A stretch of DNA of 64,000 bases from Acidimicrobiia bacterium (GCA_021296315.1 JAGWAO010000023.1:19855-83854), one strand, 5' to 3'; positions 4,681 through 61,352 are shown, numbered from the stretch's first letter. A program made the numbers and translations. The notes: generated by a model not told the origin, from the sequence alone.

Positions 4681-5607
4681 TCAGGCCCGGTCCGCGCCCG
4701 GATAGACCAGTTCGCTCCACTCCTGAGGGTCGACCTCCAGCATCGCGTCGATCGCCGACGCATCGGGAAGGGGTCCCACGTCCAACTCGGAGGTCATCGC
4801 GCTCATGGCCACCACATGACCCAGCCGCTGGCAGCGCTGGAGGTCGGTGGGGTGGGTTAGGTAGCCGCACAGGAATCCGGCCGCGAACGCGTCGCCGGCG
4901 CCTCTCGGACCCGCGATCGGCCCGCGCAAGGCAGGCTCGAAGTGCTCGCCGTCCGGCGTGAAGGTGTGGACGCCGACAGCGCCATCCTTCACGACCACGA
5001 TCCGAGGCCGCGGCAGCGCAGACCGCACCTGCGACGGTTCCGAGAACCCCCACACTGCGGCGGCTTCGTCCAACCCGACGAAGACGATGTCGGCCAAGTT
5101 GGCCGCCTCTTCGAACAGCTCACCCGGAGGCCCGTCGGGCCAGAGCGCGGGGCGCCAGTTGACATCGAACGACCGCAGGGCGCTGGCCGGCTCGGACAGC
5201 AGCGCCCTGACCAGGTCCCTGCACCCGTCCGAGAGGGCCAACGTGATCCCCGTGAGGTGGACGGCCCGGGCATCGAGGCACGTTTCGATCGGGACAGTCT
5301 CGGGGGACATCAGCGAAGCCGCAGAGTCCCGCCGGTAGTACTGGACCCGCTGGTTCCGCTCCGGCGTGTCCCTCAGCATCAGGCCGGTGGGGGCGTCCTC
5401 GCACAGCTCGACGAGCGACGTGTCCACTCCGCCAGCGGCGACGGCGTCATGGACCAGCGACCCGGCCATACCGGCGTCGAGGCGGCTGACCCAAGCGCTG
5501 CTGAGCCTGAGCGCGGCGCAGTAGAGCGCCACGTTCGACTCGGCCCCGCACACGTCCCAGGCAAAGTTGTCGGCCGCCGGGTCGGGATCACGATAGAGGG
5601 TGAGCAT
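4681..5607 (-). CDS. PfkB-family sugar kinase (KdgK-like)
   Basis: This is the C-terminal 308 aa of the long 4681..7581 ORF. It has GAESNVA near the N-terminus and the PfkB signature GAGDAFAAGFL near the C-terminus. ATG at 5607. The upstream part of that ORF is antisense to uvrB. Confidence 0.75.
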   Translation of the reverse strand: MLTLYRDPDPAADNFAWDVCGAESNVALYCAALRLSSAWVSRLDAGMAGSLVHDAVAAGGVDTSLVELCEDAPTGLMLRDTPERNQRVQYYRRDSAASLMSPETVPIETCLDARAVHLTGITLALSDGCRDLVRALLSEPASALRSFDVNWRPALWPDGPPGELFEEAANLADIVFVGLDEAAAVWGFSEPSQVRSALPRPRIVVVKDGAVGVHTFTPDGEHFEPALRGPIAGPRGAGDAFAAGFLCGYLTHPTDLQRCQRLGHVVAMSAMTSELDVGPLPDASAIDAMLEVDPQEWSELVYPGADRA

Positions 5608-5744
5608 CGACGCGAGTATGTGCGGCGCTGCGAATTGCAGATCGCAGAGTGGGACGACCTGCGGGCCAGCCTCGAGGATCCCGACAGCCCTGTCGAAGTG
5701 CCTAGGGCCGCCATCGCCCTGTCGAGGGCCCCGGCGACCGGAGC

Positions 5745-5835
5745 CCCCCGAGCCGAGCAGCCGCCCACGGCGTCGGTACGATCGGGAGCCAGTGGCCCGA
5801 GCGGCCCGTGAGCGAAGCGAGCAGGAGCGGATGAC
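5745..5835 (+). mobile_element. GAGCG-rich MITE-like repeat, copy A (left half and core only)
   Basis: GTGGCCCGAGCGGCCCGTGAGCGAAGCGAGCAGGAGCGG (5792-5830) matches the core of copies B-E. Weaker similarity extends upstream to about 5745. The copy ends at the uvrB ATG. Confidence 0.6.
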
Positions 5836-16353: not shown

Positions 16354-18225
16354 ATGGGCGCGCTGAAGCGGCCGCCAGCGGGTTCCATCCCGGACGCGCC
16401 CGGGTCCTACCAGTTCCTCGACGCCGAGGGCCGGGTCATCTACGTCGGCAAGGCCAAGAGCCTGCGCTCCCGGCTCAACACCTACTTCGGCTCGCACCTG
16501 CCCCTGCGCACCCGCCAGATGGTGGACGCCGCCGCGTCGGTGGAGTGGATCCAGGTGGCCAACGAGGTCGAGGCCCTGATGCTCGAGTTCTCGCTGATCC
16601 AGCGCCACCGGCCCCGGTTCAACGTCCGCTACACCGACGACAAGTCGTACCCGTTCCTGTGCGTGACCACGCTCGACGAGTGGCCCCGGGCCATGGTCAT
16701 GCGGGGCCGGCGGCGCAAGGGCAACCGCTACTTCGGCCCCTACGGCCACGCCTACGCCATCCGCGACACCCTCGACCTGCTGCTGCGGACGTTCCCGATC
16801 AGGACCTGCACCGACGGCAAGTTCCGCCGGTACGCCAGCCTGGGCAAGCCCTGCCTGCTGTACCACATAGAGAAATGCTCGGGGCCGTGCGTCGGCGACG
16901 TGTCCACCGAGGACTATGCCGAGATGGTGGCCGAGTTGCTGCGCTTCCTGGAAGGCGACAGCGACCCGGTGCTGGACCGGCTCGAGTCAGAGATGTCGGC
17001 CGCGGCCGACGAACTGGACTACGAGCGGGCCGCCCGGCTGCGGGACCGGCTGGCCGCGGTGCTCAAGGCAGTGGAGACCCAGCAGATGGTGGGCTCCCGC
17101 AACGAGGACTTCGACGTGATCGGCCTCGTGGATGACGCCCTAGAGGCCGCAGTGCAGGTGTTCTTCGTGCGCCGGGGCCGGGTGATGGGACGCCGGGGCT
17201 TCATGATCGACAAGGCTGAGGACCTCGACCGGGCCGAGCTGGTGAGCCGGGCGCTGGAGCGCCTGTACTTCGACGACAACCCGCTGGGCTGGCCCAAGCT
17301 CGTGCTGACCCCCGATACGCCGGCCGAGGTCGGTCTCTACACCGAGTGGCTGAGCGAGATGCGGGGCTCTCGAGTCGAGATCCGGGTGCCGCAACGGGGC
17401 TCCAAGCGGGCCCTGCAAGCCACCGTGATCCGCAACGCCGAGGAGTCGTTCACGCGTCATCGGCTCAAGCGCAGCACCGACCACAACAGCCGGGCCCGGG
17501 CCCTCAACGAGCTCCAGCAGCACCTTGGATTGGCCGAGGCGCCACTGAGGGTCGAGTGCTACGACATGAGCCACCTGTCCGGGCAGGACTACGTGGGCTC
17601 AATGGTGGTGCTTGAGGACGGCCTGCCCAAGAAGGCGGACTACCGAAGGTTCAAGATCCGCACAGTGCCGGGCAACGACGACTTCGCGGCCATGCACGAA
17701 GTGCTGACCCGGCGTCTGACCGGCTACCTGGAGCAGCGGGCCCGGCCGGTGGCCGAGCGCGACGGAAGATTCAGTTACCCCCCTCAGTTGCTGCTGGTGG
17801 ACGGCGGCAGGGGACAATTGGGCGTGGCCGTGCGGGTGCTGGAAGAACTCGGCCTGGACGAAGAGATCCCCGCGGCGGCCCTGGCCAAGCAGTTCGAGGA
17901 GGTCTTCGTGCCCGGCCGGGCCGAGCCGGTGCGCATCCCGCGCCAGTCGGAGGCCCTGTACATGCTGCAACGCGTCCGCGACGAGAGCCACCGCTTCGCG
18001 ATCGAGTATCACCGCAGGCTTCGGGGCAAGCGCATGACCAGTTCCGCCCTAGACGGCATCGCCGGCCTCGGACCGGTCCGCAAGGCCCGCCTCACCAATG
18101 AGCTAGGGGGTGTGCGAGCCGTCCAGCGGGCGCAACTGCACGAGCTGAAGGCCCTGCGATGGCTGCCTGACGCGGTCGCCGAGAACGTCCACGCCGCGCT
18201 CCGCGCCAGCAGCCGGGGCGCCTGA
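16354..18225 (+). CDS. uvrC: Excinuclease ABC subunit C
   Basis: GIY-YIG N-terminus (GSYQFLDAEGRVIYVGKAKSLRSRL), UVR motif (YERAARLRDRL) and C-terminal endonuclease/HhH region. ATG 16354, with GGGAGCAGG upstream, is preferred over the TTG at 16309. Confidence 0.95.
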   Translation: MGALKRPPAGSIPDAPGSYQFLDAEGRVIYVGKAKSLRSRLNTYFGSHLPLRTRQMVDAAASVEWIQVANEVEALMLEFSLIQRHRPRFNVRYTDDKSYPFLCVTTLDEWPRAMVMRGRRRKGNRYFGPYGHAYAIRDTLDLLLRTFPIRTCTDGKFRRYASLGKPCLLYHIEKCSGPCVGDVSTEDYAEMVAELLRFLEGDSDPVLDRLESEMSAAADELDYERAARLRDRLAAVLKAVETQQMVGSRNEDFDVIGLVDDALEAAVQVFFVRRGRVMGRRGFMIDKAEDLDRAELVSRALERLYFDDNPLGWPKLVLTPDTPAEVGLYTEWLSEMRGSRVEIRVPQRGSKRALQATVIRNAEESFTRHRLKRSTDHNSRARALNELQQHLGLAEAPLRVECYDMSHLSGQDYVGSMVVLEDGLPKKADYRRFKIRTVPGNDDFAAMHEVLTRRLTGYLEQRARPVAERDGRFSYPPQLLLVDGGRGQLGVAVRVLEELGLDEEIPAAALAKQFEEVFVPGRAEPVRIPRQSEALYMLQRVRDESHRFAIEYHRRLRGKRMTSSALDGIAGLGPVRKARLTNELGGVRAVQRAQLHELKALRWLPDAVAENVHAALRASSRGA

Positions 18226-18230
18226 ACATC

Positions 18231-18485
18231 ATGCGTGCGCTGGGCGCGGTCGCACAGGTCTCCCTTCAGTCCGCGGTGCGAGTGATCCTGCTGCCGCTGG
18301 TGGCGGTGGAACTCGGCAGGGGCCCGGGCGTGTCGAGGGTCATCGTCGCGTCGCTCGTCGTGTGCGCGGTGGTCACCGCGGCCTCGTCGAAGTCATCACC
18401 GCGGTGGTGGATGCGATATGAGGGGGCCGCGAGCGGCGCTCATGGTCACGTCTACGCTGCCCGCATTGCCCGTACTGCCGGTTAG
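18231..18485 (+). CDS. Possible small hydrophobic protein (84 aa)
   Basis: The ORF exactly fills the uvrC-SDR gap and has hydrophobic stretches. No homology was recognised, and it could be a chance high-GC ORF. Confidence 0.25.
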   Translation: MRALGAVAQVSLQSAVRVILLPLVAVELGRGPGVSRVIVASLVVCAVVTAASSKSSPRWWMRYEGAASGAHGHVYAARIARTAG

Positions 18486-18497
18486 GGAGGTGGGCAG

Positions 18498-19301
18498 ATG
18501 CACGACTCCTTGAGGGGCAAGGTTGTTCTTGTCACCGGGGCCGGCCGGGGCATAGGCAGGGCCATCGCCGAGCGCTTCGCCGCGGCTGGCTCGGCGGTGG
18601 CCGCGAACGACATCGACGGCGACGCCGCGGCCGCCACAGCAGAGACAATCCGCAGCGGCAACGGCACCGCGATGGCGGTTCAGGCCGACGTGTCGGAGAG
18701 CGCGCAGGTGGGCGCCATGGTGGACACGATCATGACCGCCCACGGCCGGATCGACGTGCTGGTCAACAACGCCGGGATCGTGAGTCCCATGCTCCACTTC
18801 TTCGATGCGACCGAGGAATGGTGGCGGCGCATCGTCGACGTCAACCTGACCGGGCACTTCCTGGTGTCGCACCCGGTGGCCCGCATCATGGCTACCCAGG
18901 GCGGCGGCAGCATCATCAACATGAGCTCCGGCGGCGCCACCCGGGCCCACCGGTCGTTCACCGCCTACGACGCCACCAAGGGCGGGATCGAGGCCCTAAC
19001 CCGGGCGATGGCGTTGGACCTGGGCCCCTACAACGTACGGGTCAACGCGCTGGTGCCGGGTGCCATCGACACCAGCGGCATGACAAGCGACCAGCGGGCG
19101 CTCCGGGGCGAGAACGTTCCGCTGGGCCGGATCGGCGAGCCTTTCGATCTGACCGGCGGCGCGCTCTTCCTGGCATCCGACGACGCCGGCTACATCACCG
19201 GAGAGACGCTGCGGGTGGACGGCGGGATGCTGGCCCAGCAGCGCTCCGCGACCGTCGACGTCGTCCCGCCCAGCACGTTCCCTGCGATCGAGGACCTGTA
19301 G
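18498..19301 (+). CDS. SDR-family oxidoreductase (FabG-like)
   Basis: TGAGRGIGRAIA cofactor motif, NNAG, and catalytic YDATKGG (YxxxK). The RBS GGGAGG lies upstream. Confidence 0.85.
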   Translation: MHDSLRGKVVLVTGAGRGIGRAIAERFAAAGSAVAANDIDGDAAAATAETIRSGNGTAMAVQADVSESAQVGAMVDTIMTAHGRIDVLVNNAGIVSPMLHFFDATEEWWRRIVDVNLTGHFLVSHPVARIMATQGGGSIINMSSGGATRAHRSFTAYDATKGGIEALTRAMALDLGPYNVRVNALVPGAIDTSGMTSDQRALRGENVPLGRIGEPFDLTGGALFLASDDAGYITGETLRVDGGMLAQQRSATVDVVPPSTFPAIEDL

Positions 19302-19377
19302 AGGTGGAGCGAGTGGCGGCCGGGGTGAACATCGCAGTGTCATGCGACCTCGACGCGACGGCCGAGGATCTGTAGCC

Positions 19378-21990
19378 GTGGAGCGAGCCGTGGCCGCGCC
19401 CCGGGTCGGTGTCGACGTCGGCGGCACGTTCACCGACGTCGCCCTCGAGCGCGCTGACGGGACGTTCGCGTCCATCAAGGTGCTCACCACTCACCAGCGG
19501 CCCGAGGAGGGGATTCTCGCGGGAGTCTCGTCCGTCGCCGACCGCGAGCGCGTTCAAATGGACGAGATTGCGCAGATCATCCACGGCACCACCCTGGCCA
19601 CCAACGCCCTGATAGAGCGCCGCGGCGCCAAGACGGCGCTGGTGACTACCACCGGGTTCCGCGACGTGATCGAGACCCGCACCGAGAGCCGTTTCGAGCA
19701 GTACGACCTGAACATCGTGCTGCCCGCGCCCCTGATCGAGCGCAAGGACCGCTTCGTGGTGCCGGAGAGGATCGGCGCCCGCGGCGAAGTCCTGCTGCCC
19801 TTCGACGAGCGGGCCGCCCGCGAGGTTGTCGCCCGGCTGGTGGACGGCGGATACGAGTCGGTGGCCGTCGGGTTCATGCACAGCTACCGGAACCCGGATC
19901 ACGAGCGCCGCTTCCGGGAGCTGCTGCTCGATGCCGCCCCGTCGGTCGCCGTGTCACTGAGCTGCGAGGTCTCGCCGCAGATGCGCGAGTTCGAAAGGTT
20001 CAACACGGTCTGCGCCAACTCCTACGTTCAGCCGCTGATCGCTACGTACCTGCGGCGACTGGAATCGGAACTGCAGCGCATGGGTGCGATGTGCCCACTG
20101 CTGCTGATCCACTCCGGCGGAGGCCTGATCAGCAGCGACGCGGCGGCCTCGTTCCCCGTGCGCCTCGTCGAGTCGGGCCCGGCCGGGGGAGCGATCTTCG
20201 CGGCGCACCTGGCCCGGGCCCATCGCCGCGACCGGATCGTCTCCTACGACATGGGGGGAACCACCGCGAAGATCGCGCTGATAGAGGACGGCTCGCCCCG
20301 CACGGCCAAGACCTTCGAGACGGCCCGAACCGCCCGCTTCAAGAAGGGCAGCGGGATGCCCATCTCGGTCCCGGCCATCGAGATGATCGAGATCGGCGCG
20401 GGCGGCGGGTCCATAGCGACCGTCGACGCGCTCGGCCAGATACGGGTGGGGCCTCAGAGCGCCGGCGCCGATCCCGGTCCCGCGTGTTACGACCTCGGCG
20501 GGAGGACTGCGACCGTGACCGACGCCAACGTGCGCCTCGGCCGGCTGCACCCGGAGAACTTTCTTGCGCCGGACATCTCGCTGTCACCGGAGTTGGCGAC
20601 CAGCGCCCTCCGCGACTCAGTGGGCATGCCCCTGGGCCTTGACAACGATGGCGCCGCGGTGGGGGTGGCCGAGGTGGTCGACGAGAACATGGCCAACGCG
20701 GCCCGAACCCACGCGGTGGAGAGCGGCAAGGACCTTGCCGGCTACTCGATGGTCGCCTTCGGAGGGGCCGCTCCGCTGCACGCTTGCCACCTGATCGACA
20801 AGCTGGGCATCGACGAGGTGCTGGTGCCGGTCGGCGCGGGCGTCGGCTCAGCCATCGGGTTCCTGCTGGCGCCGTTCTCCTACGAGGCCACCCGCAGCTT
20901 CTACACCACGTCCGACCGCTTCGACACCGGCGGCGTCCGGGCGCTGCTTGCGGAGCTGGCCGCGGAGGCTGAGGCGTTTGTCCGGATGGGCACCGCGGAG
21001 GCGGTGACCGTCGAGCGCGAGGTGCTCATGCGATACCGCGGCCAGGGCTGGGAGATCCCGGTGGCGCTGCCCCACGGCGACTTCGACGAGATCGCAGCGG
21101 GGGAGCTCACCACCACTTTCGTGAAGGCCTACGAGGCATTCTTCGGGCGGGCAATCGAGGGCCTCACCATCGAGGCGGTGAGCTGGTCGGTGCGGGTGTC
21201 CTCGCGGCGCGAGGCGCCGACAGCGATAGAGCCCCTACCGGCGGGCCAGCCCCCGGCAATCGCGGGCACCCGGCTGGTGTACGACCCGGCCGCGGGCAGG
21301 AAGGTGGCCGCCGCTCTGTTCGAGCGGGCTGCCCTCGCCGCCGGTGACACCGTCAACGGCCCGGCGCTGATCACCGAGGACCAGACCACGACGGTGGTCG
21401 GGTCCCAGCACACTGCTGTTGTCCAGCCCGACCTGACCTTGAGGATCACCGGGACGGGCCGGCCGGGCGGCGGTTGGCCGGCAGCGGGCGCGCAGCAACG
21501 CGACGCCGAGCCGGCACGCCCTGCTCGGCCCGTCGGCGTCCCCGCACTGGCACCGGGACCGCGATGCCGGGACGGCAGGCCGCGACGACCCGATGCAGCC
21601 AGCTCCGCAAGCCATCAGGTTCCCGGACGGAGCCGGGACCGCGAGCCATGGGGTCCCGATGCAGATCATGTGGAACCGCCTGATATCGGTAGTCGAGGAG
21701 CAGGCGCTGACCCTGGTGCGGACCGCCTTCTCTACGTCGGTGCGGGAGGCTGGCGATTTGTCGGCTGGAGTGTTCGATCGCAGGGGCCGCCTGATCGCCC
21801 AGGCCGTCACCGGAACGCCGGGCCATGTCAACACCATGGCCGCGTCCCTGGGCCACTTCATCAACGAGATCGGGGCCGAGAGCATGTGCCCCGGCGATGT
21901 GTATCTCACCAACGACCCTTGGAAGGGCACCGGCCACCTCCACGACATCACCGTGGCCACGCCGGTGTTCACCCGAGGCCGAGCGGATAG
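19378..21990 (+). CDS. hyuA: Hydantoinase/oxoprolinase A subunit; no stop codon at the expected C-terminus (about 21455), so the ORF runs on to 21990
   Basis: N-terminal RVGVDVGGTFTDV signature. Homology-like sequence ends at ...GPALITEDQTTTVVGSQHTAVVQPDLTLRI. The following ~180 codons are Pro/Arg/Gly-rich and overlap hyuB. The start is GTG 19378 or ATG 19342. Confidence 0.8.
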   Translation: MERAVAAPRVGVDVGGTFTDVALERADGTFASIKVLTTHQRPEEGILAGVSSVADRERVQMDEIAQIIHGTTLATNALIERRGAKTALVTTTGFRDVIETRTESRFEQYDLNIVLPAPLIERKDRFVVPERIGARGEVLLPFDERAAREVVARLVDGGYESVAVGFMHSYRNPDHERRFRELLLDAAPSVAVSLSCEVSPQMREFERFNTVCANSYVQPLIATYLRRLESELQRMGAMCPLLLIHSGGGLISSDAAASFPVRLVESGPAGGAIFAAHLARAHRRDRIVSYDMGGTTAKIALIEDGSPRTAKTFETARTARFKKGSGMPISVPAIEMIEIGAGGGSIATVDALGQIRVGPQSAGADPGPACYDLGGRTATVTDANVRLGRLHPENFLAPDISLSPELATSALRDSVGMPLGLDNDGAAVGVAEVVDENMANAARTHAVESGKDLAGYSMVAFGGAAPLHACHLIDKLGIDEVLVPVGAGVGSAIGFLLAPFSYEATRSFYTTSDRFDTGGVRALLAELAAEAEAFVRMGTAEAVTVEREVLMRYRGQGWEIPVALPHGDFDEIAAGELTTTFVKAYEAFFGRAIEGLTIEAVSWSVRVSSRREAPTAIEPLPAGQPPAIAGTRLVYDPAAGRKVAAALFERAALAAGDTVNGPALITEDQTTTVVGSQHTAVVQPDLTLRITGTGRPGGGWPAAGAQQRDAEPARPARPVGVPALAPGPRCRDGRPRRPDAASSASHQVPGRSRDREPWGPDADHVEPPDIGSRGAGADPGADRLLYVGAGGWRFVGWSVRSQGPPDRPGRHRNAGPCQHHGRVPGPLHQRDRGREHVPRRCVSHQRPLEGHRPPPRHHRGHAGVHPRPSG

Positions 21991-23404
21991 GCGAGCGAGT
22001 CCGGCTCATACGGGTGAGGCCGCGGCCCGAGCGGCCCGAGAGGCCAGCGAACAAGAGCGGGAGACACCCCCTGGCAACGCGACGGGCTCGCACCTACCCG
22101 CGCACGCTCTCGGCGATCACTCGGATGAACCCAAAGATCTCATCGGCTTCTTCGCGTCGACCGCGCACGTGGTCGACATCGGCGGCCGCGGCTTCGGTCC
22201 CGACGCCCGCGAGCTGTACGAGGAAGGCATCCGCATCCCGATCATGAGATGGGCCGAACGGGGACGGCTCAACCGGGATCTGGTCGACATCGTGCGCGCC
22301 AATGTGAGGGAGCCCGACCAGGTGATCGGCGACATCCACGGGCTGGCCGCCTCCAACGAAACCGGTCGCCGGCGGCTGCTCGACATGCTGGGGGAATTCG
22401 GCCTGACCGACCTCGAGGAGTTGGCCGGCTTCGTGTTCGACCGCACACGGCGAGCAACCCTCGACGCGCTGGAGAGGGTCCCCAACGGCGTCTACCGCAA
22501 CACGATGCGGGTAGACGGGTACGGCGATCCGGTCACTCTGGCCGCGGCGGTGACCGTCTCCGATGACGGCATGCACGCCGACTTCACGGGCACGTCGCCG
22601 GTGAGCCCGTTCGGCATCAACGTTCCGATCACCTATGCGCAGGCGTACTTCACCTACGGGATGCTGGTGGCGCTGGCTCCAGAGCTGCCCAACAACTACG
22701 CCTCCCTGCTGCCCTTCACGGTGAGCGCTCCACCCGGTGCGATCCTCAACGCGGTGGAGCCCGACCCGGTGGCCGTGCGCCACGTGATCGGCCACTTCGT
22801 GACCGATCTGTGCCTGGGAGCGATCGCCCCGGCACTGCCCGACATCGTTCCGGCCGAGGGTTCCGGAGCGCTGTGGAACTTCCAGGCCAGCGCCCGCAGC
22901 GCCGATCCCGGGGACCCGCGGCCGCCGGTGGAGATGCTGATGTTCAACAGCGGCGGCAGCGGCGCCCGGCCCGGCCGCGACGGGCTCACCGCCACCGCCT
23001 TCCCGTCGGGTGTGAGGACCATGAGCGTCGAGGCCACCGAGCAGGTCGGCCCGATCGTGGTGTGGCGCAAGGAGATGCGACCGGACAGCGGCGGAGCGGG
23101 CCGGTTCCGGGGCGGCTTGGGTCAGGTGATCGAGATCGCCCCGGCCGACGGGTACCTGTTCGAGTTCTCGGCCATGTTCGACCGGGTCGACAACCCGGCC
23201 CGGGGCCGGGCGGGCGGCCTCGACGGCACGGTTGGCGGGGTGCGCCTCGACGACGGCACACCGTTCGGGTCCAAGGGCAAGCAGACCGTGCCTGCGGGCC
23301 GGCGGCTCATCCTGGAGCTACCCGGCGGCGGGGGATTCGGCGACCCGGCGGAGCGCGACCCGGCCGCGGCCGCCAACGACCTGGCCCAGGGCTACGTGAC
23401 TTGA
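21593..23404 (+). CDS. hyuB: Hydantoinase B/oxoprolinase subunit carrying an in-frame repeat-element insertion
   Basis: HyuB-like N-terminus (MWNRLISVVEEQALTLVRTAFS), DPWKGTGHLHDITVATPVF, then about 46 foreign codons, then LIGFFASTAHVVDIGG and the rest of the family-typical sequence. Confidence 0.85.
   Translation: MQPAPQAIRFPDGAGTASHGVPMQIMWNRLISVVEEQALTLVRTAFSTSVREAGDLSAGVFDRRGRLIAQAVTGTPGHVNTMAASLGHFINEIGAESMCPGDVYLTNDPWKGTGHLHDITVATPVFTRGRADRRASPAHTGEAAARAAREASEQERETPPGNATGSHLPAHALGDHSDEPKDLIGFFASTAHVVDIGGRGFGPDARELYEEGIRIPIMRWAERGRLNRDLVDIVRANVREPDQVIGDIHGLAASNETGRRRLLDMLGEFGLTDLEELAGFVFDRTRRATLDALERVPNGVYRNTMRVDGYGDPVTLAAAVTVSDDGMHADFTGTSPVSPFGINVPITYAQAYFTYGMLVALAPELPNNYASLLPFTVSAPPGAILNAVEPDPVAVRHVIGHFVTDLCLGAIAPALPDIVPAEGSGALWNFQASARSADPGDPRPPVEMLMFNSGGSGARPGRDGLTATAFPSGVRTMSVEATEQVGPIVVWRKEMRPDSGGAGRFRGGLGQVIEIAPADGYLFEFSAMFDRVDNPARGRAGGLDGTVGGVRLDDGTPFGSKGKQTVPAGRRLILELPGGGGFGDPAERDPAAAANDLAQGYVT
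21975..22112 (+). mobile_element. GAGCG-rich MITE-like repeat, copy B (inside the hyuB coding sequence, 138 bp)
   Basis: GAGGCCGAGCGGATAGGCGAGCG...CATACGGGTGAGGCCGCGGCCCGAGCGGCCCGAGAGGCCAGCGAACAAGAGCGGGAG...CACCTACCCGCGCACGCTCT is colinear with copies C, D and E. Confidence 0.85.
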
Positions 23405-23416
23405 AGCACGCGTCTC

Positions 23417-24625
23417 ATGCTGAGTAGTGCCCGGCATAGTCCCCGGCGCTCCAACTACGACGTGGTGATAGCAGGCGGGGCGATCATGGGCTCATCGGTC
23501 GCGTTCTTCCTGTCCAGCAGCCCCGACTTCGGCGGGACCATCCTGGTGGTGGAGCGGGACCCGTCGTACGAGTACAGCTCCACGGCCCGCACCAACAGCT
23601 GCATGCGCCAGCAGTTCTCGCGTGAAGTCAACATCCGCATCTCGCAGTTCGCGGCCGAGTTCGTGCGCGACTTCCGTGACTGGATGGGCGACCCGGAGGC
23701 ACCCGAGGTTCCCGTCAACCACTTCGGCTACATGTACCTGGCGGGCGACGAAGCCTCGGCGGCGGTGCTGGCGGCCAACCAGCAGGTGCAGGCCGCCCTC
23801 GGAGCCGGCACGCGGATCATGTCCGCGGAGCAGATCGCAGCCGAGTACCCCTTCTACAACGTCGACGGCATCGTCTGCGGCAGCCACAACCTCGTCGGCG
23901 AGGGCTGGTGGGACTCCGGAACGGTGTTCGACTGGTGGCGGCGACAGGCCCGGCGCAACGGCGTCGAGTACGTCTCTGACGAGGTAGTCGGCATCGACCG
24001 CGCCGGAGACACGGTGACCGGGGTGGAGCTGGCGTCGGCGGGGACGATCGGCTGCGGGGCGCTGGTCAACGCCACCGGCCCGAGGGCGTCCCATACCGCG
24101 GCCATGGCCGGCCTGGAGCTGCCGGTGGAGCCCCGCAAGCGCTACACGTTCGTCTTCGAGGCGGCCGAGCCGCTGGACCGGGACCTGCCCCTGACCATCG
24201 ATCCGACCGGCGTGCACGTGCGCCGCGACGGCGTTGCCTACCTGGCCGGCTGTCCGCCTGACGTCGACCGGCCGGTGGCCTACGACGACTTCGACATGGA
24301 CCACGAGATATGGGAATCCAAGGTGTGGCCCGTGCTGGCGCACCGGGTTCCCGCCTTCGAGCGCATCAAGGTCACCAGCCGCTGGGCCGGGCACTACGCC
24401 TACAACTGCTTCGACCACAACGCAGTGGTCGGACCCCACACCGAGGTTCGGAACTTCTTGTTCATCAACGGCTTCTCCGGCCACGGCATGCAGCAGTCGC
24501 CGGCGATGGGTCGGGCCGTGGCGGAGCTGCTGTGCTACGGCGAGTACCGCACGCTCGACTTGTCAGAACTCGGTTACGAGCGCATAGAGCGGGGCGAACC
24601 GTTCGTCGAGACGGCGATCATCTGA
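23417..24625 (+). CDS. FAD-dependent oxidoreductase (DAO / sarcosine oxidase beta-like)
   Basis: N-terminal dinucleotide fold YDVVIAGGAIMGSSVAFFL. Length of 402 aa and C-terminal GFSGHGMQQSPAMG are typical of the DAO family. Confidence 0.8.
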   Translation: MLSSARHSPRRSNYDVVIAGGAIMGSSVAFFLSSSPDFGGTILVVERDPSYEYSSTARTNSCMRQQFSREVNIRISQFAAEFVRDFRDWMGDPEAPEVPVNHFGYMYLAGDEASAAVLAANQQVQAALGAGTRIMSAEQIAAEYPFYNVDGIVCGSHNLVGEGWWDSGTVFDWWRRQARRNGVEYVSDEVVGIDRAGDTVTGVELASAGTIGCGALVNATGPRASHTAAMAGLELPVEPRKRYTFVFEAAEPLDRDLPLTIDPTGVHVRRDGVAYLAGCPPDVDRPVAYDDFDMDHEIWESKVWPVLAHRVPAFERIKVTSRWAGHYAYNCFDHNAVVGPHTEVRNFLFINGFSGHGMQQSPAMGRAVAELLCYGEYRTLDLSELGYERIERGEPFVETAII

Positions 24626-56338: not shown

Positions 56339-56530
56339 AGAACGTGCGCGGGTAGGTGATGGCGCCTCGCCATGCGGCGGCGCCATTCCCGCTCTTGTTC
56401 GCTGCGCTCACGGGCCGCTCGGGCCGTGTCTCCCGCTCTTTTTCGTTGCGCTCACGGGCCGCTCGGGCCCGCGGCCTCGCTGAGGGTCCCGCCAATACCC
56501 TCATGAATCGCCGCCTATCCGCTCGGCCTC
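56339..56530 (-). mobile_element. GAGCG-rich MITE-like repeat, copy E (192 bp, core tandemly duplicated)
   Basis: The reverse complement reads GAGGCCGAGCGGATAGGCGGCG...[GGCCCGAGCGGCCCGTGAGCGCAACGAAAAAGAGCGGGA]GACAC[GGCCCGAGCGGCCCGTGAGCGCAGCGAACAAGAGCGGGA]...CACCTACCCGCGCACGTTCT. The 39-nt units lie at 56387-56425 and 56431-56469. Confidence 0.85.
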
Positions 56531-57319
56531 TGCGGGCCCGTCGGTGGGCGGCCCGGCGAAGGCCTGAGCCATGGACAACCACTCGCGAGCCCGCTCCCCG
56601 GAGACCTGCAAGGCCGTGTCGGTCACGTTGCGGCGCTGGGTCACTACGAGGCAGAAGTCGAGAGCCGGGCCCTTCACCGCGTTGTCTCCGGCTACGCTGG
56701 CGTCACCCCAGGCCCACAGATCCCCCGCCGGAGCGGTCAGCTCCACACGGACATCGCCCTCGGGTGGGGTCAGGCCCCGGTTCACGTAGGACCACCCTCT
56801 AGTGATGCAGCCGAGCTGGGCCACGTGGCGGAGCCGGTGGGTGGGCTCGCGATGCGCGCCCACCGTGTCGCACACATCGGTGCCGTGGGCCCACGCCTCC
56901 ATGAGCCGGGCGGTGACGAAGGACTTGGCCCCCATCGAGGGCCCGTACCAGCTCACCCGGTCGCGCTCGCCGAGCGTGCCGACCGCTTCGGCCAGGTCCG
57001 ATCGGCCTTGCCGCCAGTGCTCCAAGCGGCCGGGGACGCCCAGGCTTCGGAAGTCGCCCAGGGTGAAGTCGTCACCCGAGGTCTTGCTCACCAGCGACGC
57101 CTCCATGAGACGCCCGGCCTCGGTCGAGAACGCATCCGGGTCGCGGATGGCCAGTGCGGCTGCCCGGTCGAAGTAGCACAGGTGGCCGATCTGGTCGGTC
57201 ACCGACCAGCGGGGGCTCGGGGTGGGCAGATCCCAGTCGCCCTCGTGGAACGACGCCACGACTTCGTCGAGGCTTGCCTGCTCGTCGAGCAGGTCTTTCA
57301 GGAGGTCTGCCAACTTCAC
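56501..57319 (-). CDS. Mycothiol-maleylpyruvate-isomerase-like (DinB_2/TIGR03084-type) protein
   Basis: N-terminal DinB-like helix bundle with WSVTDQIGHLCYFD. 272 aa. The last ~10 codons and the stop lie inside repeat copy E. Confidence 0.65.
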   Translation of the reverse strand: MKLADLLKDLLDEQASLDEVVASFHEGDWDLPTPSPRWSVTDQIGHLCYFDRAAALAIRDPDAFSTEAGRLMEASLVSKTSGDDFTLGDFRSLGVPGRLEHWRQGRSDLAEAVGTLGERDRVSWYGPSMGAKSFVTARLMEAWAHGTDVCDTVGAHREPTHRLRHVAQLGCITRGWSYVNRGLTPPEGDVRVELTAPAGDLWAWGDASVAGDNAVKGPALDFCLVVTQRRNVTDTALQVSGERAREWLSMAQAFAGPPTDGPAEAERIGGDS

Positions 57320-57437: not shown

Positions 57438-59204
57438 TCAGCCTCCGAGCAAGCCCTCGGGAACTTCCACCACCCGGGCCCGGAGCCATTCACCGAGGCT
57501 CTTGGCCTGCGCGTCCTGGCGGTCCGAGGCGGCTACCCCGTCGCCGAGCAGGCCGTGGATCACGAAGTTGAGAGACCAGATGTTTCCGAGCCGGTGCCGG
57601 TCCACCCGCAGCGGTGCCGCCTCCGGCAGCAGCTCGCGCAGACGCTCCGTGCTCAGGAAGCCGTCAAGCCACTCGAAGGCATCGGCGGAGCGGGCGAAGA
57701 CACCCAGGTTGGCGTTTCCGCCCTTGTCCCCCGAGCGGGTGCCGACAACCCGGCCCAGCGGCGCTGGCACCGTGGAGCCCCAGTCCCGGCCCTCGGCGGC
57801 AGGGGTGGGGGAGGGAATCGGCGACGCCGGCGCGGCCGCGGCCGGCACCGGATCGACGACGGTGCGCTCGCCGTCGAGGAAGGTCACGTACTGGGGCACG
57901 GCCTCGGCCGGCACGGTGGCCGGCCGGTAGATGCCGAAGGCCCGTCCCCGGGCTGCGGAGCCCGCCGAGAACATTCCCGGGATGGTGGCCAGGGCCAACT
58001 CGTTCATGGCGTCCGACAGGGTGCGCCCGAGCCGGTCCTCGTCGTGGTCGAACACGATGAGCCGCCACACCGCGACGGCCTCCTCGTTGGTGGCCGGATC
58101 GCTCTTGTCGGTGCGCACCACCCGCTCGGTGACTTTGGCGTAATCGCCCGGGTCGTGGGGGCAGGCCCGCCAGAAGGCGTCGTGCACCAGGGCCGCCTTG
58201 GCCTCGATGTCGAGTCCGGTGAGAGCGACGTTGATCTCGCTGCGGAAGCCGCCCAGCTCGTTGGTGGCCACCTTGAGTGTGGGCGGGGGTGGCTCGCCCC
58301 GCACCGAGTCCATCCTCACCCGGTCGACACCGGTCTGGGCGAGCCGGATGGTGTCGAAGCGGGTGGTCACGTCGGGGCCCAGATAGCCGGGCGCGTCGAT
58401 CTCGTAGAGCAGCTGCGCGGTGACCGTCCCAACCGTGACCGCACCGCCGGTGCCGTCGTGTTTGCCGATCACCGAGGAGCCGTCGGCCGCGATCTCGGCC
58501 CACGGGAAGCCGGTGCGGGCCATGCCCTCCACCTCGGTGAAGAACGAATAGTTGCCGCCCGTCGCCTGGGTGCCGCACTCGATCACGTGCCCGGCTGCCA
58601 CCGCGCCGGCTAGGGCGTCCCAGTCGTCGATGGCCCAGCCGTGGTGCCAGGCCGCGGGACCGCATGCCACCGCCGCGTCGGTGACCCGCCCCGTCACCAC
58701 GATGTCGGCGCCGCGGCGGAGGGCCTCCGCTATGCCCCAGCCCCCCAGGTAGGCGTTGGCGGTGATCAGCTTCGACGTGTCGGTCATGGGCTCGCCGGTG
58801 GCGAACGACCGGAGCGTCACCGCGTCGGCCGCGTCGGCGGCGAGGCGCGCCATGAGGTCGTCGCCCTCCACGCAAGCGATCCTCGGGTCCAGACGCAATC
58901 GCTCGGCCACCTCGGCGACCGCCTGCGCGCAGCCGCGGGGATCGAGCCCGCCCGCGTTGGACACCACCTTGATGCCCCCGTCCAGACAAGTGCCCATCAC
59001 CTGCTCCATCTGCTTGACGAAGCTGCGGGCGTACCCGCCGCCGGGTCGTCTGGAACGGGTGCGAGCCAGTATCAGCATGGTCAGCTCGGCCAGCCAGTCC
59101 CCCGTGAGGACATCGATGGACCCGCCGTTCACCATCTCGGCCGCAGCCGACAGCCGGTCGCCGTAGAAGCCGGAGCAGTTGGCGATCCGGATCGGCTCAG
59201 CCAC
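57438..59204 (-). CDS. atuA: AtuA-like acyclic terpene utilisation protein (DUF1446)
   Basis: MAEPIRIANCSGFYGDRLSAAAEMV...IDVLTGDWLAELTM is the DUF1446 N-terminal signature. The GTG overlaps the carboxylase alpha stop (GTGGCTGA). Confidence 0.75.
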   Translation of the reverse strand: MAEPIRIANCSGFYGDRLSAAAEMVNGGSIDVLTGDWLAELTMLILARTRSRRPGGGYARSFVKQMEQVMGTCLDGGIKVVSNAGGLDPRGCAQAVAEVAERLRLDPRIACVEGDDLMARLAADAADAVTLRSFATGEPMTDTSKLITANAYLGGWGIAEALRRGADIVVTGRVTDAAVACGPAAWHHGWAIDDWDALAGAVAAGHVIECGTQATGGNYSFFTEVEGMARTGFPWAEIAADGSSVIGKHDGTGGAVTVGTVTAQLLYEIDAPGYLGPDVTTRFDTIRLAQTGVDRVRMDSVRGEPPPPTLKVATNELGGFRSEINVALTGLDIEAKAALVHDAFWRACPHDPGDYAKVTERVVRTDKSDPATNEEAVAVWRLIVFDHDEDRLGRTLSDAMNELALATIPGMFSAGSAARGRAFGIYRPATVPAEAVPQYVTFLDGERTVVDPVPAAAAPASPIPSPTPAAEGRDWGSTVPAPLGRVVGTRSGDKGGNANLGVFARSADAFEWLDGFLSTERLRELLPEAAPLRVDRHRLGNIWSLNFVIHGLLGDGVAASDRQDAQAKSLGEWLRARVVEVPEGLLGG

Positions 59205-61278
59205 TGCCGGCCTCCGGGGGAGCGGCCTCGGCCGCCTCGAACACCAGCAGCGGCGAGCCGTTGTCCACCTGGTCTCCGGGCGCGACCAGCACCTGCGTCA
59301 CGGTGCCGTCGCACGGCGCGCTCACCTGGTGCTCCATCTTCATGCCCTCCATCACCACCAGGGTCTGACCCGCGGCCACCTGCGCGCCGGAGGTGACCCG
59401 CACGTCGATGATCACGCCCGGCATGGGCGCCGCAAACCCGCCCGCGGTCAGGCCGCTGTCGGGCGTCCCGAAGCGGGGCAGCACGGCCACGCTCACCGTC
59501 TCGGAGTCGCCGGTCACGTAGAGCCGGTCGCCGTGGGCGGTGACCGCGTAGCGGATGCGACGGCCGTTCCACTCGACATCGAGCGCATGCGAAGACCAGG
59601 CCGCGACCGTAGCCGGAGCCTCAGTCACGTCCGAAGCCTCGACCACGTCCGAAGCCTCGACCACGTCCGAAGCCTCCACCACGTCCGAAGCCTCCACCAC
59701 GTCCGAAGCCTCCACCACGTCCTCGGCGCACTCGGCCCGAACGACGAAGGAGCCGTCGCGCCGGGGCCAGTACGAAACAACCACTTCGATGGAGCCAGCC
59801 GCGGTCGCCACAGCCAGCTCCACCCGCTCGGGCGGGAGACGGCCGTGGCGCCATCCACTGGGCATCCATGCCAGGGTCCGGGCCTGCTGCCGCTCAGCGG
59901 CCTGGAGCCACATGGCGGCCGCCACCGCGGCCCGCTGACACTCAGCCAGCGAGAGGGCGGCGGCCCGGCTCGGAGCGACCCGCTCGATGAAGTCGGTAGT
60001 GGTGTCGCCCGCCATGAAGGCTTCCGAGCGGAGCGCGGCCACCAAGAAGTGGCGGTTGGTGGTCACTCCGCCGATGTGAAGGCGCTCAAGGGCCAGGGCC
60101 AGGCGTCCGGTCGCTTCGGACCGGGTGGGAGCGTGGGCAATGACTTTGGCCAGCATCGGGTCGAAGTCGAGGCCGACCTCGCTGCCGGCCTCCACACCGC
60201 CGTCCCACCGGACCGCCGGCTCGGCCGGGGGCGAGAAAGCGGCCAGAGTGCCCACCGCGGGCAGGAAGCCGGCCGCGGGATCCTCGGCGTAGAGCCGGGC
60301 CTCGACGGCGTGGCCCGTGAAGACGACATCGGCCTGGCTGTAGCCCAGCGGCTCGCCCGCAGCCACCCGCAGCTGCTCGCGGACCAGGTCGATGCCGGTC
60401 ACCTCCTCGGTTACGGGATGCTCCACCTGCAGGCGGGTGTTGACCTCCAGGAAGAAGAAGTCGCCGGTGTCGTCGTCGAGCAGCAACTCCACCGTGCCGG
60501 CCGAGCAGTAGCCGATCGAGGAGGCCAGCCGCACCGCGGCGTCGCCCATGGCGGCCCGCAGTTCGTCGCCGACCGCGGTCGACGGCGCCTCCTCGATGAT
60601 CTTCTGGTGGCGGCGCTGGATCGAGCACTCCCGCTCGCCGAGGTGGATCACGTTGCCGTGGGTGTCGCCCAGGATCTGGACCTCCACATGGCGGCAGCTC
60701 TGCAGGTAGCGCTCAAGGAACACGGTGTCGTCGCCGAAGCCGCCCAGAGCTTCGCGCCGGGCTGCGGCCACGGCTTCGGGCAACTCGGCGGGATCCGACA
60801 CCAGGCGCATGCCCTTGCCACCTCCGCCCGCGGCCGCCTTGACCATGAGCGGGAAGCCGGCATCGCCCGCTTCGGCGGGATCCTCCGAGGAAGGCAGCGT
60901 CGGCACGCCCGCGGCCGCGGCCGCAGCCTTGGCCGCCAGCTTGTCGCCCATGGTCTCGATGGCATGCGGGTCGGGGCCGACCCACACCAGGCCGGCAGCG
61001 GTCACCGCCCGGGCGAAGCCGGCATTCTCGGCCAGGAAGCCGTAGCCGGGATGCACCGCGTCTGCCCCGGCCCCGACCGCGGCAGCCACCACGGCGTCGC
61101 CGTCGAGGTAGCCGCCGGGCAGGCGCACAGCCACATCGGCCTCGGCCACGAACGGCGCCCCGGCGTCGGCGTCGGCGAACACGGCCACGCAGCGCATGCC
61201 CATGGCCCTCGCGGTGCGGAACACCCGTCGGGTGATCTCGCCCCGGTTGGCCACCAGCAGCGTGCTGATGGCCCTCAC
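59197..61278 (-). CDS. Biotin-dependent acyl-CoA carboxylase alpha subunit (biotin carboxylase, BT and BCCP domains; AtuF/MccA-like)
   Basis: ISTLLVANRGEITRRV, ATP-grasp GGGGKGMR, and C-terminal biotinylation motif MEGMKMEH. The start is GTG 61278 (or 61287). Confidence 0.9.
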   Translation of the reverse strand: MRAISTLLVANRGEITRRVFRTARAMGMRCVAVFADADAGAPFVAEADVAVRLPGGYLDGDAVVAAAVGAGADAVHPGYGFLAENAGFARAVTAAGLVWVGPDPHAIETMGDKLAAKAAAAAAGVPTLPSSEDPAEAGDAGFPLMVKAAAGGGGKGMRLVSDPAELPEAVAAARREALGGFGDDTVFLERYLQSCRHVEVQILGDTHGNVIHLGERECSIQRRHQKIIEEAPSTAVGDELRAAMGDAAVRLASSIGYCSAGTVELLLDDDTGDFFFLEVNTRLQVEHPVTEEVTGIDLVREQLRVAAGEPLGYSQADVVFTGHAVEARLYAEDPAAGFLPAVGTLAAFSPPAEPAVRWDGGVEAGSEVGLDFDPMLAKVIAHAPTRSEATGRLALALERLHIGGVTTNRHFLVAALRSEAFMAGDTTTDFIERVAPSRAAALSLAECQRAAVAAAMWLQAAERQQARTLAWMPSGWRHGRLPPERVELAVATAAGSIEVVVSYWPRRDGSFVVRAECAEDVVEASDVVEASDVVEASDVVEASDVVEASDVTEAPATVAAWSSHALDVEWNGRRIRYAVTAHGDRLYVTGDSETVSVAVLPRFGTPDSGLTAGGFAAPMPGVIIDVRVTSGAQVAAGQTLVVMEGMKMEHQVSAPCDGTVTQVLVAPGDQVDNGSPLLVFEAAEAAPPEAGSG
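59626..59731. repeat. 18-bp tandem repeat (5 full units plus a partial unit) inside the carboxylase alpha coding sequence
   Basis: On the plus strand, CACGTCCGAAGCCTC(G/C)AC occurs five times. It encodes (VVEASD)5 in frame. Two G-variant and three C-variant units are present. Confidence 0.9.
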
Positions 61279-61305
61279 AGCCGGCACCGCCTCATCGTTC
61301 CACCG

Positions 61306-61352
61306 GAATTGGCAGCACAACGCTCGCTGAGCGTGCACAACGCTGCCAATTC
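61306..61352. repeat. REP-like hairpin, GAAYTGGCAGC family, copy 3
   Basis: GAATTGGCAGC, a 25-nt loop (with inner hairpin ACGCTC-GCT-GAGCGT), then GCTGCCAATTC. Confidence 0.75.

Follow-up and report, generated by a model that had tools for sequence, protein, structure and literature searches.

An in-frame MITE-like repeat within hyuB of an Acidimicrobiia genome

Palindromic repeats lying in frame within genes have been described in Rickettsia (RPEs; Ogata et al., 2000, 2002), and nearly half of the R. conorii copies are reported to be intragenic (PMC10969869). ERIC, BOX, QMITE1 of Coxiella and Anabaena MITEs also insert in frame (reviewed in PMC10969869; Delihas, 2007). The novelty of in-frame insertion at the locus described here is therefore smaller than the sequence-only reading of this DNA implied: the repeat family itself seems to be undescribed, but the behaviour is known beyond Rickettsia. 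Literature searches on the host genera and on actinobacterial in-frame MITEs yielded no description of this repeat.

Several other systems invite comparison. IS5-family (IS1031-type) and PIF/Harbinger-Tourist elements produce 3-bp TNA/TWA duplications, and REP/REPIN elements, mobilized by RAYTs, are 20–40-nt palindromes that carry a conserved GTAG/CGTC tag and occur together with a RAYT gene. Mycobacterial interspersed repetitive units (MIRUs) are without inverted-repeat arms. Inteins comprise at least ~130 aa, begin with Cys/Ser and end in His-Asn, after which comes Cys/Ser/Thr. For the repeat in hyuB we favour, with a probability of about 80%, insertion of a MITE-like, non-autonomous element of an undescribed family into the hyuB gene of an ancestral lineage, HyuB being functional and the insert a tolerated passenger.

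A full-length repeat copy inside hyuB

The window, i.e. the whole 64-kb stretch of Acidimicrobiia DNA analysed, carries at 21975–22109 a full-length copy of a 135-bp dispersed palindromic repeat. The features of the locus are as follows (L001 is the related contig OZ244832.1 introduced below).

21659–23404, plus strand: hyuB, beta subunit of ATP-dependent lactamase, Hydantoinase_B/oxoprolinase family (Pfam PF02538, E=2e-139)
21935–21946, plus strand: codons for His115...Asp118 (HLHD), metal ligands on the strand entering the hairpin, aligned to H-x-x-D of N-methylhydantoinase 7hk5
21972–21974, plus strand: 5' flanking trinucleotide CCC, read as a decayed target-site duplication (CCA in L001)
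21975–22023, plus strand: 5' arm, GAGGCCGAGCGGATAGGCGAGCGAGTCCGGCTCATACGGGTGAGGCCGC, from copy alignments; pairs with the 3' arm
22024–22062, plus strand: conserved 39-nt core, GGCCCGAGCGGCCCGAGAGGCCAGCGAACAAGAGCGGGA, translated in hyuB as ARAAREASEQERE
22063–22109, plus strand: 3' arm, ending in GACGGGCTCGCACCTACCCGCGCACGCTC, from copy alignments and arm pairing
22110–22112, plus strand: 3' flanking trinucleotide TCG, read as a decayed target-site duplication
22112–22138, plus strand: native loop codons G DHSDEPKD, preceding the conserved LIGFFASTAH strand
22166–22168, plus strand: His192 codon, metal ligand on the strand leaving the hairpin

Core and both arms are complete, as had been proposed: a profile built from 25 full-length copies, the hyuB copy among them, matched 21975–22110 with E=4e-33. 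Together with one flanking trinucleotide, the repeat adds 138 nt, or 46 codons (21974–22111), to hyuB. The foreign peptide quoted earlier, of 50 residues, needs a small correction: its terminal GDHS belongs to the native loop by ortholog comparison (AG-DGASGSED, AD-HGSGEHGT and other empty-site loops resemble the sequence that follows the insert). The claim of an in-frame, stop-free passage held: there is neither a stop codon nor a frameshift, and the longest hyuB ORF (21593–23404, 603 aa; frame open from 21443) continues across the repeat. The probable start is ATG 21659, where MQIMWNRL agrees with the P0002 start. The insert encodes the hydrophilic 46-residue peptide RGRADRRASPAHTGEAAARAAREASEQERETPPGNATGSHLPAHAL. 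The trinucleotides beside it, CCC and TCG, depart from TNA, and no TNA occurs in TTC-GCC-GGC, the inferred ancestral site; both points weigh against the favoured explanation. CCA/TCA flank pairs are present in three other copies of the repeat.

The insert breaks the PF02538 match into two stretches and widens the spacing from Asp118 to His192 to 74 residues, versus 22 in insert-free relatives. Ligand identities for the hairpin were taken from work in which His99/Asp102 of CapB and His150/Asp153 of XaAc-alpha are metal ligands (PMC8453981); HyuB His170 (trimmed numbering) was equated with CapB His124 because query residue 164 aligns to CapB 118. An AF2 model, of modest confidence (mean pLDDT 68.8, which weighs against the favoured explanation), shares the NMHase and CapB fold. 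Its strands 96–106 and 159–170 surround an excursion of low confidence in which residues 120–134 form a helix, and the insert is predicted to be mostly disordered with one charged helix. Modelling had been called for earlier as a check on a surface loop; the insert sits at a beta-hairpin tip, with the metal ligand Asp118 before it and the metal ligand His192 after it. The conserved blocks on either side are indeed normally few residues apart: they are contiguous or separated by 2–10 residues in orthologs and solved structures, and the residues flanking the insert are contiguous in the latter (7hk5 809|810).

The repeat family and its other copies

A scan of GTDB representatives returned at least 114 8-kb blocks with the repeat; the window and the 114 loci listed (0.9 Mb of Acidimicrobiia MAG sequence) contain ~160 copies. 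All matches listed were Acidimicrobiia MAGs, and the repeat is common in sponge-associated members of the class (Ca. Aldehydirespirator, Ca. Poriferisodalis and relatives). Copies are 135–150 nt long, within MITE size (< ~300 bp), lack a transposase gene and are dispersed in large numbers, with imperfect terminal inverted repeats and target-site duplications. When arm pairing was specified by hand, the arms paired in 78.5% of cells versus 37–47% in slid controls; 13 of 21 arm pairs had changes on both sides, and at two positions GC/AU changes compensated for each other. RNAalifold, run on 41 copies, recovered only an invariant hairpin in the core and did not pair the arms over long range, and single-sequence folding was no more stable than that of shuffled sequences (z -0.81 and -0.29). 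The consensus flank is TNA, N being identical on both sides in 16 of the 21 copies with TNA at both ends and in a further nine with CNA/TNA. Modal net length, i.e. element plus 3-bp duplication, is 138 (22/62 copies), being 138 in subfamily A and 149 in subfamily B.

The build is modular: one core is combined with any of at least three different left arms. The 39-nt core also occurs alone and as tandem arrays. Between window copies the core is 89–92% identical, versus 63–82% for the arms; its invariance in 41 aligned copies arises in part from a scan pattern that required it. Intergenic copies are orientation-biased relative to flanking genes (46 vs 23). Arm-only profile matches in the 0.9 Mb amounted to one fragment (L088:2261–2308) with no IS or transposase adjoining, which weighs against MITE insertion. 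Rfam 15 gave no match in the whole window at the gathering threshold or in 35880–36100 at E<=1, scanning for promoters and terminators near the 35925 copy found nothing, and neither GTAG nor CGTC, the REP/REPIN hallmark, was evident at the consensus ends.

The window holds four full copies and one partial copy. Those outside hyuB are:

35925–36060, plus strand: intergenic full-length copy flanked by TGA (35922–35924) and TGA (36061–36063)
50439–50591, plus strand: intergenic full-length copy with ~13 extra nt, between glyoxalase-family and PhyH genes, both on the minus strand
56340–56530, minus strand: subfamily-B copy with two tandem cores of 43-nt period, from repeat comparison and profile
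5786–5842, plus strand: core-only variant directly upstream of uvrB

Segment 21975–22116 forms direct repeats with 35925–36061 and 50441–50589 (63–82% identical) and an inverted repeat with 56333–56469 (79–89% complementary). The profile matched 35923–36062 (E=5e-36) and 50439–50591 (E=3e-30), and also detected the composite minus-strand copy (56337–56531) and the core-only piece. Gene context bore out the intergenic position assigned earlier to the full-length copies at 35925, 50441 and 56339. The 5' flanking TGA at 35925 serves as stop codon for the PhyH gene 35004–35924, and the core-only variant places AGGAG 8 nt 5' of the uvrB ATG at 5836. The minus-strand copy takes up the entire spacer that separates a gene of the MDMPI family from one for an enoyl-CoA hydratase, its 5' arm containing the last nine codons and TGA of ORF 56501–57319 and its 3' arm the first ATG (56373) of ORF 55537–56373.

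Insertion in frame was recurrent. A copy in priA adds exactly 46 aa in the frame used in hyuB and is absent from 28 orthologs; others lie in frame in an xdhC-like gene and a DUF5318 gene of related genomes. The three arm-bearing in-frame copies (hyuB, priA, xdhC-like) share strand and frame (p ~0.04 given open frames, by hand calculation). Candidate spanning ORFs at L033, L065, L011, L021, L006 and L047 were rejected, the Pfam domain being absent or the element lying upstream of the real start. There are thus ~4 independent in-frame cases among ~160 copies, intragenic copies making up ~2–3% of those sampled. Since 27 of 62 copies have a length divisible by 3 and a mean of 35% of frames are open, ~15% of random intragenic insertions would keep the ORF open by chance, so that filtering by survivorship, and not design, is the best reading of the in-frame state.

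Empty sites, common origin and selection

Alignment with orthologs (65–89% identity), proposed earlier as the way to define the empty site, did so and also set the native loop boundary. Apart from that of one independent MAG, all other close orthologs aligned (36 across two alignments) are without the insert: 16 of 17 other proteins in the first alignment are without it, and the second, of 38 sequences, added no further carrier. The empty site is visible at the DNA level in L002–L004. The exception is Ca. Aldehydirespirator OZ244832.1 (L001; assembly ERZ25072670), with an insertion at the same codon, an identical 5' junction and derived bases such as CCCCCTGGMAAC in common with the window. By these sequence characters, the insertion goes back to a lineage ancestral to the window genome and OZ244832.1.

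L001 differs from the window by ~7% and has indels of its own. Within the insert these are +2, +43 (a core duplication) and -36 nt; two of them alone would each break the frame, but their sum, +9 nt, keeps it. The first core of L001 is read in another frame, GPERPVSAANKSG, and the 3' arm is lost, so the peptide sequence is not conserved.

L003 lacks the insert yet is no more distant from the window than L001 is; this calls for loss, lineage sorting or recombination and weighs against the favoured explanation. Quartet counts were mixed, (W,L003) 124, (W,L001) 91 and (L001,L003) 49, and mosaic along the locus; phylogenetic dating of the insertion was therefore set aside, gain-then-loss being indistinguishable from lineage sorting or recombination. 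The L003 loop is the shortest among aligned orthologs, six codons shorter than those of L002 and L004, and has the right boundary of L001, which hints that it may reflect deletion of the insert.

Judged by substitution patterns, hyuB is under purifying selection and its frame has been maintained. The hyuB flanks have a dN/dS of 0.107 between window and L001 (0.11–0.19 among empty-site orthologs), and a value of ~0.11 means that the gene is still under selection; three-taxon arithmetic gives ~0.09 for the window terminal branch. For hyuA, dN/dS is 0.14–0.18. Insert codons common to window and L001 have five synonymous and three non-synonymous changes (omega 0.2).

The operon is not pristine, and this weighs against the MITE-insertion explanation. 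In the window, hyuA has no stop where homology ends and reads out of frame to 21990, into hyuB; in L001 it is split by a different, 107-nt MITE that brings stops. L002 hyuA has a 1-nt frameshift. A fused hyuAB is present in L001, L002 and 7hk5.

These hyuA defects, and the ~15% of insertions that would stay open by chance, are what one could cite for a decaying hyuAB in which the insert is one lesion among several, in frame by luck and of no consequence for the protein. We regard this as unlikely: dN/dS in hyuB and hyuA is no higher than in intact relatives, the compensating indels of L001 preserve the frame, the 1-nt frame problems may be errors at G+C-rich runs in long-read MAG assemblies, and a single indel would restore the fused hyuAB in the window, because the hyuB frame is open from 21443.

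Somewhat less probable again is that the insert was co-opted, its charged helical peptide or its RNA/DNA core giving a new function, for example a surface for interactions, a site of regulation or altered metal-site access. The strand and frame shared by the hyuB, priA and xdhC-like copies, the higher conservation of core than arms, the omega of 0.2 within the insert and the orientation bias of intergenic copies would all suit co-option, but the numbers are tiny, and the frame bias also fits if one frame alone gives a hydrophilic, stop-free peptide. Moreover, the L001 peptide has diverged, close relatives manage without the insert, and the AF2 prediction is mostly disorder. Most likely the insert is neutral and tolerated.

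Although multi-copy elements can confuse assemblers, a repeat-induced chimera or mis-join, named earlier as a refuting outcome, is ruled out for practical purposes because OZ244832.1, an independent assembly from another sample, has the same codon interrupted while diverging by ~7% and bearing indels of its own, and both flanks continue one gene in one frame. Equally improbable is removal of the segment before or during protein synthesis (as intron, intein or translational bypass) to leave a normal mature HyuB, for which nothing speaks except that the insert interrupts a catalytic hairpin: at 46 aa, starting RGRA and ending HAL then G, it is too short for an intein and lacks intein motifs and nucleophiles, it has no Rfam match and folds no better than shuffled sequence, and its stop-free state and compensating indels would be needless.

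Under the favoured explanation, a MITE-like repeat would have been moved into hyuB by a DDE transposase acting in trans. Its survival there would reflect (i) the modal net length of its subfamily, element plus 3-bp duplication giving 138 bp or 46 codons, (ii) a 'GAGACAC' sequence variant without stops in the frame used, and (iii) landing at the tip of a length-variable beta-hairpin, at a distance from the metal site, the ligands of which lie at the base of the hairpin. We infer translation of the insert into a hydrophilic 46-residue excursion, and retained activity of HyuB, the insert being a passenger rather than an adaptation.

Likeness to known systems

The family is an undescribed one that shows known RPE-like behaviour at low frequency (~2–3% of copies). 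Its occurrence takes RPE-like 'selfish DNA inside proteins' into Actinomycetota and sponge symbionts and supports in-protein repeats as an accompaniment of repeat proliferation in host-associated bacteria generally. It also provides a natural experiment on how far expansion is tolerated by a catalytic beta-hairpin, in HyuB, and by a zinc-binding region, in PriA. Annotators should be aware of the family: Pfam matches are split by it, adjacent ORFs take stops and starts from it, and it probably misleads gene callers and assemblers in Acidimicrobiia MAGs. It is doubtful that the family is a second, independent RPE-type 'protein-coding palindrome' system with a functional core and a peptide exapted as a surface module. 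Were it so, the 39-nt core would be a host-factor or RNA signal, supplying Shine-Dalgarno, stop or start signals between genes, and the preferred-frame peptide would have been exapted repeatedly, in HyuB altering the metal-ligand hairpin.

Like other prokaryotic MITEs found in frame, the repeat is small and non-coding, has terminal inverted repeats and target duplications, and is mostly intergenic with occasional stop-free in-frame copies within genes; it differs as a new sequence family with modular arms in an uncultivated lineage. With IS5-family (IS1031-type) and PIF/Harbinger-Tourist elements it shares the 3-bp TNA target duplication, a likeness we treat as a lead only, as no transposase or full-length IS with the ends of the repeat was seen in the sampled 0.9 Mb. 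A preference for TNA would account for copies lying on stop codons in a genome of 69% G+C. In the examples examined, 43–46-nt core arrays in co-directional gene spacers recall MIRUs, as does the ability of the core to provide adjacent ORFs with a stop, Shine-Dalgarno or start signal, but the sequences are unrelated and the arrays are here a side feature of a MITE-like element.

The comparison with RPEs, drawn from the sequence alone at the outset, is apt for behaviour and gains from the copies in priA, the xdhC-like gene and the DUF5318 gene. Both are dispersed palindromic repeats of ~100–150 bp, intergenic and in frame within unrelated housekeeping genes, encoding a conserved peptide in one preferred frame while host ORFs stay open and conserved. 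The hyuB repeat is set apart by host phylum and sequence, as a G+C-rich, probably unrelated element of Actinomycetota, class Acidimicrobiia, by clear TNA target duplications with terminal inverted repeats, by a hyperconserved core found singly and in tandem arrays as well, and by an intragenic share far lower than that in R. conorii, ~2–3% of sampled copies versus nearly half.

The hyuB repeat copy and its relatives in the window

An ORF at 21593..23404 of the window (G+C, 69%) encodes a 603-aa protein of the Hydantoinase_B/oxoprolinase family (Pfam PF02538, E=2e-139), with the PF02538 match split in two stretches. Translation of this ORF across the insert reads ...GHLHDITVATPVFT / RGRADRR...HAL / GDHSDEPKDLIGFFASTAHVVDIGG, as the sequence-only reading had given it, and the protein-level junctions are PVFT|RGRADRR (5′) and HALG|DHSDEPK (3′). 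The inserted repeat copy is 135 nt long and, with one flanking trinucleotide, adds 138 nt or 46 codons.

Anatomy of the hyuB repeat copy, and repeat partners of 21975-22116 from a repeat search of the window
21975-22023, 5′ arm of the hyuB copy
22024-22062, core of the hyuB copy
22063-22109, 3′ arm of the hyuB copy
35925-36061, repeat partner, direct
50441-50589, repeat partner, direct
56333-56469, repeat partner, inverted

The sequence-only reading had proposed a full-length copy with both arms and core, and further copies elsewhere in the window. The former is borne out by the anatomy of 21975-22109 and by a nucleotide profile built from 25 full-length copies (E=4e-33 for 21975-22110, this copy itself being among the 25); the latter agrees with the three places tied to 21975-22116 by the repeat search. 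Its observation of an in-frame repeat in hyuB is confirmed, and its interpretation is supported. The profile also scored the copies at 35923-36062 (E=5e-36) and 50439-50591 (E=3e-30), and located a composite minus-strand copy at 56337-56531 and a core-only piece at 5786-5842.

The latter, a variant without arms (..GAGCGAAGCGAGCAGGAGCGG), lies directly 5′ of uvrB and overlaps the last part of ORF 4942..5811, an ORF without Pfam match; its AGGAG is placed 8 nt ahead of the uvrB ATG at 5836 and may serve as the uvrB ribosome-binding site. The minus-strand copy (56340-56530) occupies the entire spacer between two co-directional genes: its 5′ arm supplies the final nine codons (EAERIGGDS) and the TGA of the MDMPI-family ORF 56501..57319, and the enoyl-CoA hydratase ORF has its first ATG (56373) inside the 3′ arm. 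The window also has another dispersed repeat, an almost perfect palindrome of 47 nt (GAACTGGCAGC...GCTGCCAGTTC), which occurs at 50386-50435, immediately upstream of the main-repeat copy at 50439, and twice in tandem near 61300-61440 (61306-61352 and 61377-61423). The minus-strand ORF 59197..61350, presumably an acyl-CoA carboxylase alpha subunit, has an 18-nt tandem repeat at 59600-59725, read as (EASDVV)x5, in the linker ahead of the biotinyl-lysine motif EGMKMEH.

A MITE-like repeat family

Scanning GTDB, at one genome per species, with a 24-base core pattern returned at least 114 8-kb blocks carrying the repeat core. Among the matches listed, all are Acidimicrobiia MAGs (Ca. Aldehydirespirator, Ca. 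Poriferisodalis and sponge-derived bins), and the profile counts ∼160 copies in the window and the 114 blocks among these matches. The subfamily A consensus is [TNA]GAGGCCGAGCGGATAGGCGAGCGAATCCGGCC-CATACGG-GCGAGGCCGT-GGCCCGAGCGGCCCGTGAGCGCAGCGAACAAGAGCGGGA-AtGACaCCGCTGCGACGCGACGGGCTCTCACCTATCCGCGcaCGCTC[TNA], with the ends GAGGCCGAGCG...CGCTC and a modal net length of 138 nt (22/62 copies); the other two subfamilies differ in the left arm, which is longer in the second (mode 149) and short in the third. The arms are imperfect inverted repeats, in which 78.5% of cells pair, versus 37-47% in controls with a slid partner; two positions show GC/AU exchanges. Because the middle base agrees on both sides (identical in 16 of the 21 copies flanked by TNA at either end, and matching in nine further copies with CNA/TNA flanks), we read the flanks as a 3-bp TNA target duplication. 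Such a duplication is reminiscent of IS5/IS1031 and Harbinger-type transposases. As TGA and TAA both fit TNA, copies are often placed right on a stop codon, e.g. the PhyH gene ends at 35924, at the flank of the copy at 35925. No parent IS was seen in the window or in the blocks among the matches listed, and Rfam gave no family match to the repeat; given also the inverted-repeat arms, the TNA duplication and the modal lengths, we call the family MITE-like. The core can also amplify in tandem, reaching 36.2 perfect repeats of a 46-nt unit in Ca. Aldehydirespirator CBDHCM010000006.1 (L112:2341-4003); two to three cores spaced 43-46 nt apart are found in L104, L059, L084 and the window copy 56340-56530, and the core stands alone without arms in L063, L072, L082 and L034.

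Origin and maintenance of the hyuB insertion

That the insert separates blocks normally a few residues apart, as had been claimed, holds for the closest homologues: in 16 of 17, PVF is joined to LIGFFASTAH by only 2-10 residues. The insert is likewise absent from every additional ortholog in a second alignment of 38 sequences. In the solved N-methylhydantoinase structure 7hk5, nothing separates the two residues on either side of the site (809|810), where window HyuB has 52 extra residues, and three related loci (L002, L003 and L004) are empty at the DNA level. The remaining homologue, P0001 (89% identical to window HyuB), has this insertion too, and at the identical codon. Since its source is a closed MAG from another, independent sample (Ca. 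Aldehydirespirator sp. OZ244832.1, locus L001), and since it has the 5′ junction TTC ACC MGA GGC CGA and derived bases in common with the window copy, the comparison points to a single origin of the insertion. An assembly chimera, which had been named as a possible refutation, is excluded by the same-codon insertion in that independent MAG.

L003 lacks the insert, yet is no more distant from the window than L001, and informative sites among the three give mixed support in a mosaic along the locus. A deletion in L003 that took the insert away is suggested by its loop, which falls six codons short of the L002 and L004 loops and is the shortest among the aligned orthologs, and by its right boundary, where it resumes at the same CAGCC at which the truncated L001 insert ends. 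Lineage sorting or recombination is a possible alternative for this empty site. The gene order uvrA-uvrC-SDR-hyuA-hyuB-DAO-rapZ-gap-pgk-tpi-secG is conserved between window 13389-29121 and L001, L002 and L003, and the tree topology switches along this stretch, a pattern suggestive of recombination or incomplete lineage sorting among these lineages of Aldehydirespirator.

The L001 insert differs from that of the window by three indels: it has gained 2 nt ahead of the core and a further 43 nt by tandem duplication of the core, and has lost 36 nt, comprising most of the 3′ arm plus three native codons. Two of the three would break the frame singly, and the net sum is +9 nt; as a result, the first core is read in another frame (GPERPVSAANKSG) and the original frame is regained at the second core. 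The hyuB frame across the insert is actively kept. For the hyuB flanks, dN/dS is 0.107 between window and L001 (dS 0.38), 0.11-0.19 in pairs including or consisting of empty-site orthologs, and ∼0.09 on the window's own branch by three-taxon arithmetic; hyuA gives 0.14-0.18. Together with the compensating L001 indels, these low ratios indicate that purifying selection has acted on insert-bearing hyuB. The simplest reading of the sequence data is that the insert is translated.

Upstream, window hyuA (19342-21990) has no stop where homology ends (∼21447) and runs out of frame over the hyuB start to a TAG at 21988-21990 that is supplied by the repeat. The two genes are fused in L001, L002 and PDB 7hk5. 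The window hyuB frame stays open back to 21443, so that a single indel within the G+C-rich linker (∼21445-21470) would restore the fusion; the apparent 1-nt frameshift could be real or could be an assembly error. In the five genomes compared, both the length and the sequence of this linker are hypervariable, and in L003 (3990-4080) it has its own short tandem repeat (GGCGGCGTCACAACA...). In OZ244832.1, hyuA is interrupted by a different, lower-G+C MITE of 107 nt (L001:9940-10046) with perfect 14-nt terminal repeats (CTAGGTGGCTGGTG...CACCAGCCACCTAG) and CTAG ends, which supplies in-frame stops and the ATG used as called start of the downstream HyuA-C/HyuB ORF (P0001).

Position in the protein and other in-frame copies

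Enzymes of this family hold a metal by an Asp/Glu-His-Asp-His tetrad, i.e. Asp41, His99, Asp102 and His124 in CapB, where mutants of all four ligands are inactive, and Glu89, His150, Asp153 and His175 in acetone carboxylase alpha (PMC8453981). In window HyuB, H115-x-x-D118 lies just N-terminal of the insert and His192, which aligns on CapB His124, just C-terminal, so that the Asp-to-His ligand spacing is 74 residues versus 22 in relatives. An AlphaFold2 model based on the 38-sequence alignment (mean pLDDT 68.8; numbering from M23) has the NMHase/CapB/acetone-carboxylase fold, with two long strands (96-106 and 159-170) forming a hairpin that bears the metal ligands. The excursion between them is of low confidence (pLDDT <50 at 108-119 and 135-157) and contains one predicted helix (120-134, AAARAAREASEQERE). 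Orthologs already differ in the length of the hairpin tip, which precedes the CapB-CapB interface segment (129-174; PMC8453981); we infer that it is solvent-exposed. Most likely, the insert is a tolerated, translated passenger at this tip.

All copies were screened for stop-free spanning ORFs with coding-like GC3, and candidates were then examined by Pfam. This gave three in-frame cases beyond hyuB.

In-frame repeat copies outside hyuB
priA, OZ244872.1 (L019:7658-7797), exactly 46 extra residues between the PriA cysteine pairs
xdhC-like gene, L071, between the XdhC_CoxI and XdhC_C domains
DUF5318 gene, L050, core-only, 13 aa

The priA insert is absent from 28 orthologs, one of them 82% identical. 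Strand and frame are the same in the three copies with arms (hyuB, priA and the xdhC-like gene). Only the 'GGGAGACAC' variant (∼40% of copies) lacks stops in this frame, which in the 'GGGAATGAC' variant is closed by a TGA. As the net length is divisible by three in ∼44% of copies and frames are open on average in 35%, ∼15% of random intragenic insertions would keep the ORF open. Survival of an in-frame copy would then depend on landing in a tolerant loop.

We found no description in the literature of this repeat family or of repeats in the host genera. The case is of moderate interest in that the insert lies between catalytic metal ligands of HyuB and that the repeat core is unusually conserved and modular. 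In-frame fusions by intragenic MITEs have been reviewed as 'not unusual', with ERIC, BOX, QMITE1 and Anabaena as examples (PMC10969869). The likeness to Rickettsia palindromic elements (RPE) that had been proposed is upheld by the recurrent in-frame copies in hyuB, priA, the xdhC-like gene and the DUF5318 gene: the in-frame behaviour is the same, but its frequency is much lower in the present repeat. The repeat family is new but its kind is known: it is a MITE with in-frame copies of the RPE sort, and it provides a clean, recurrent example outside Rickettsia.
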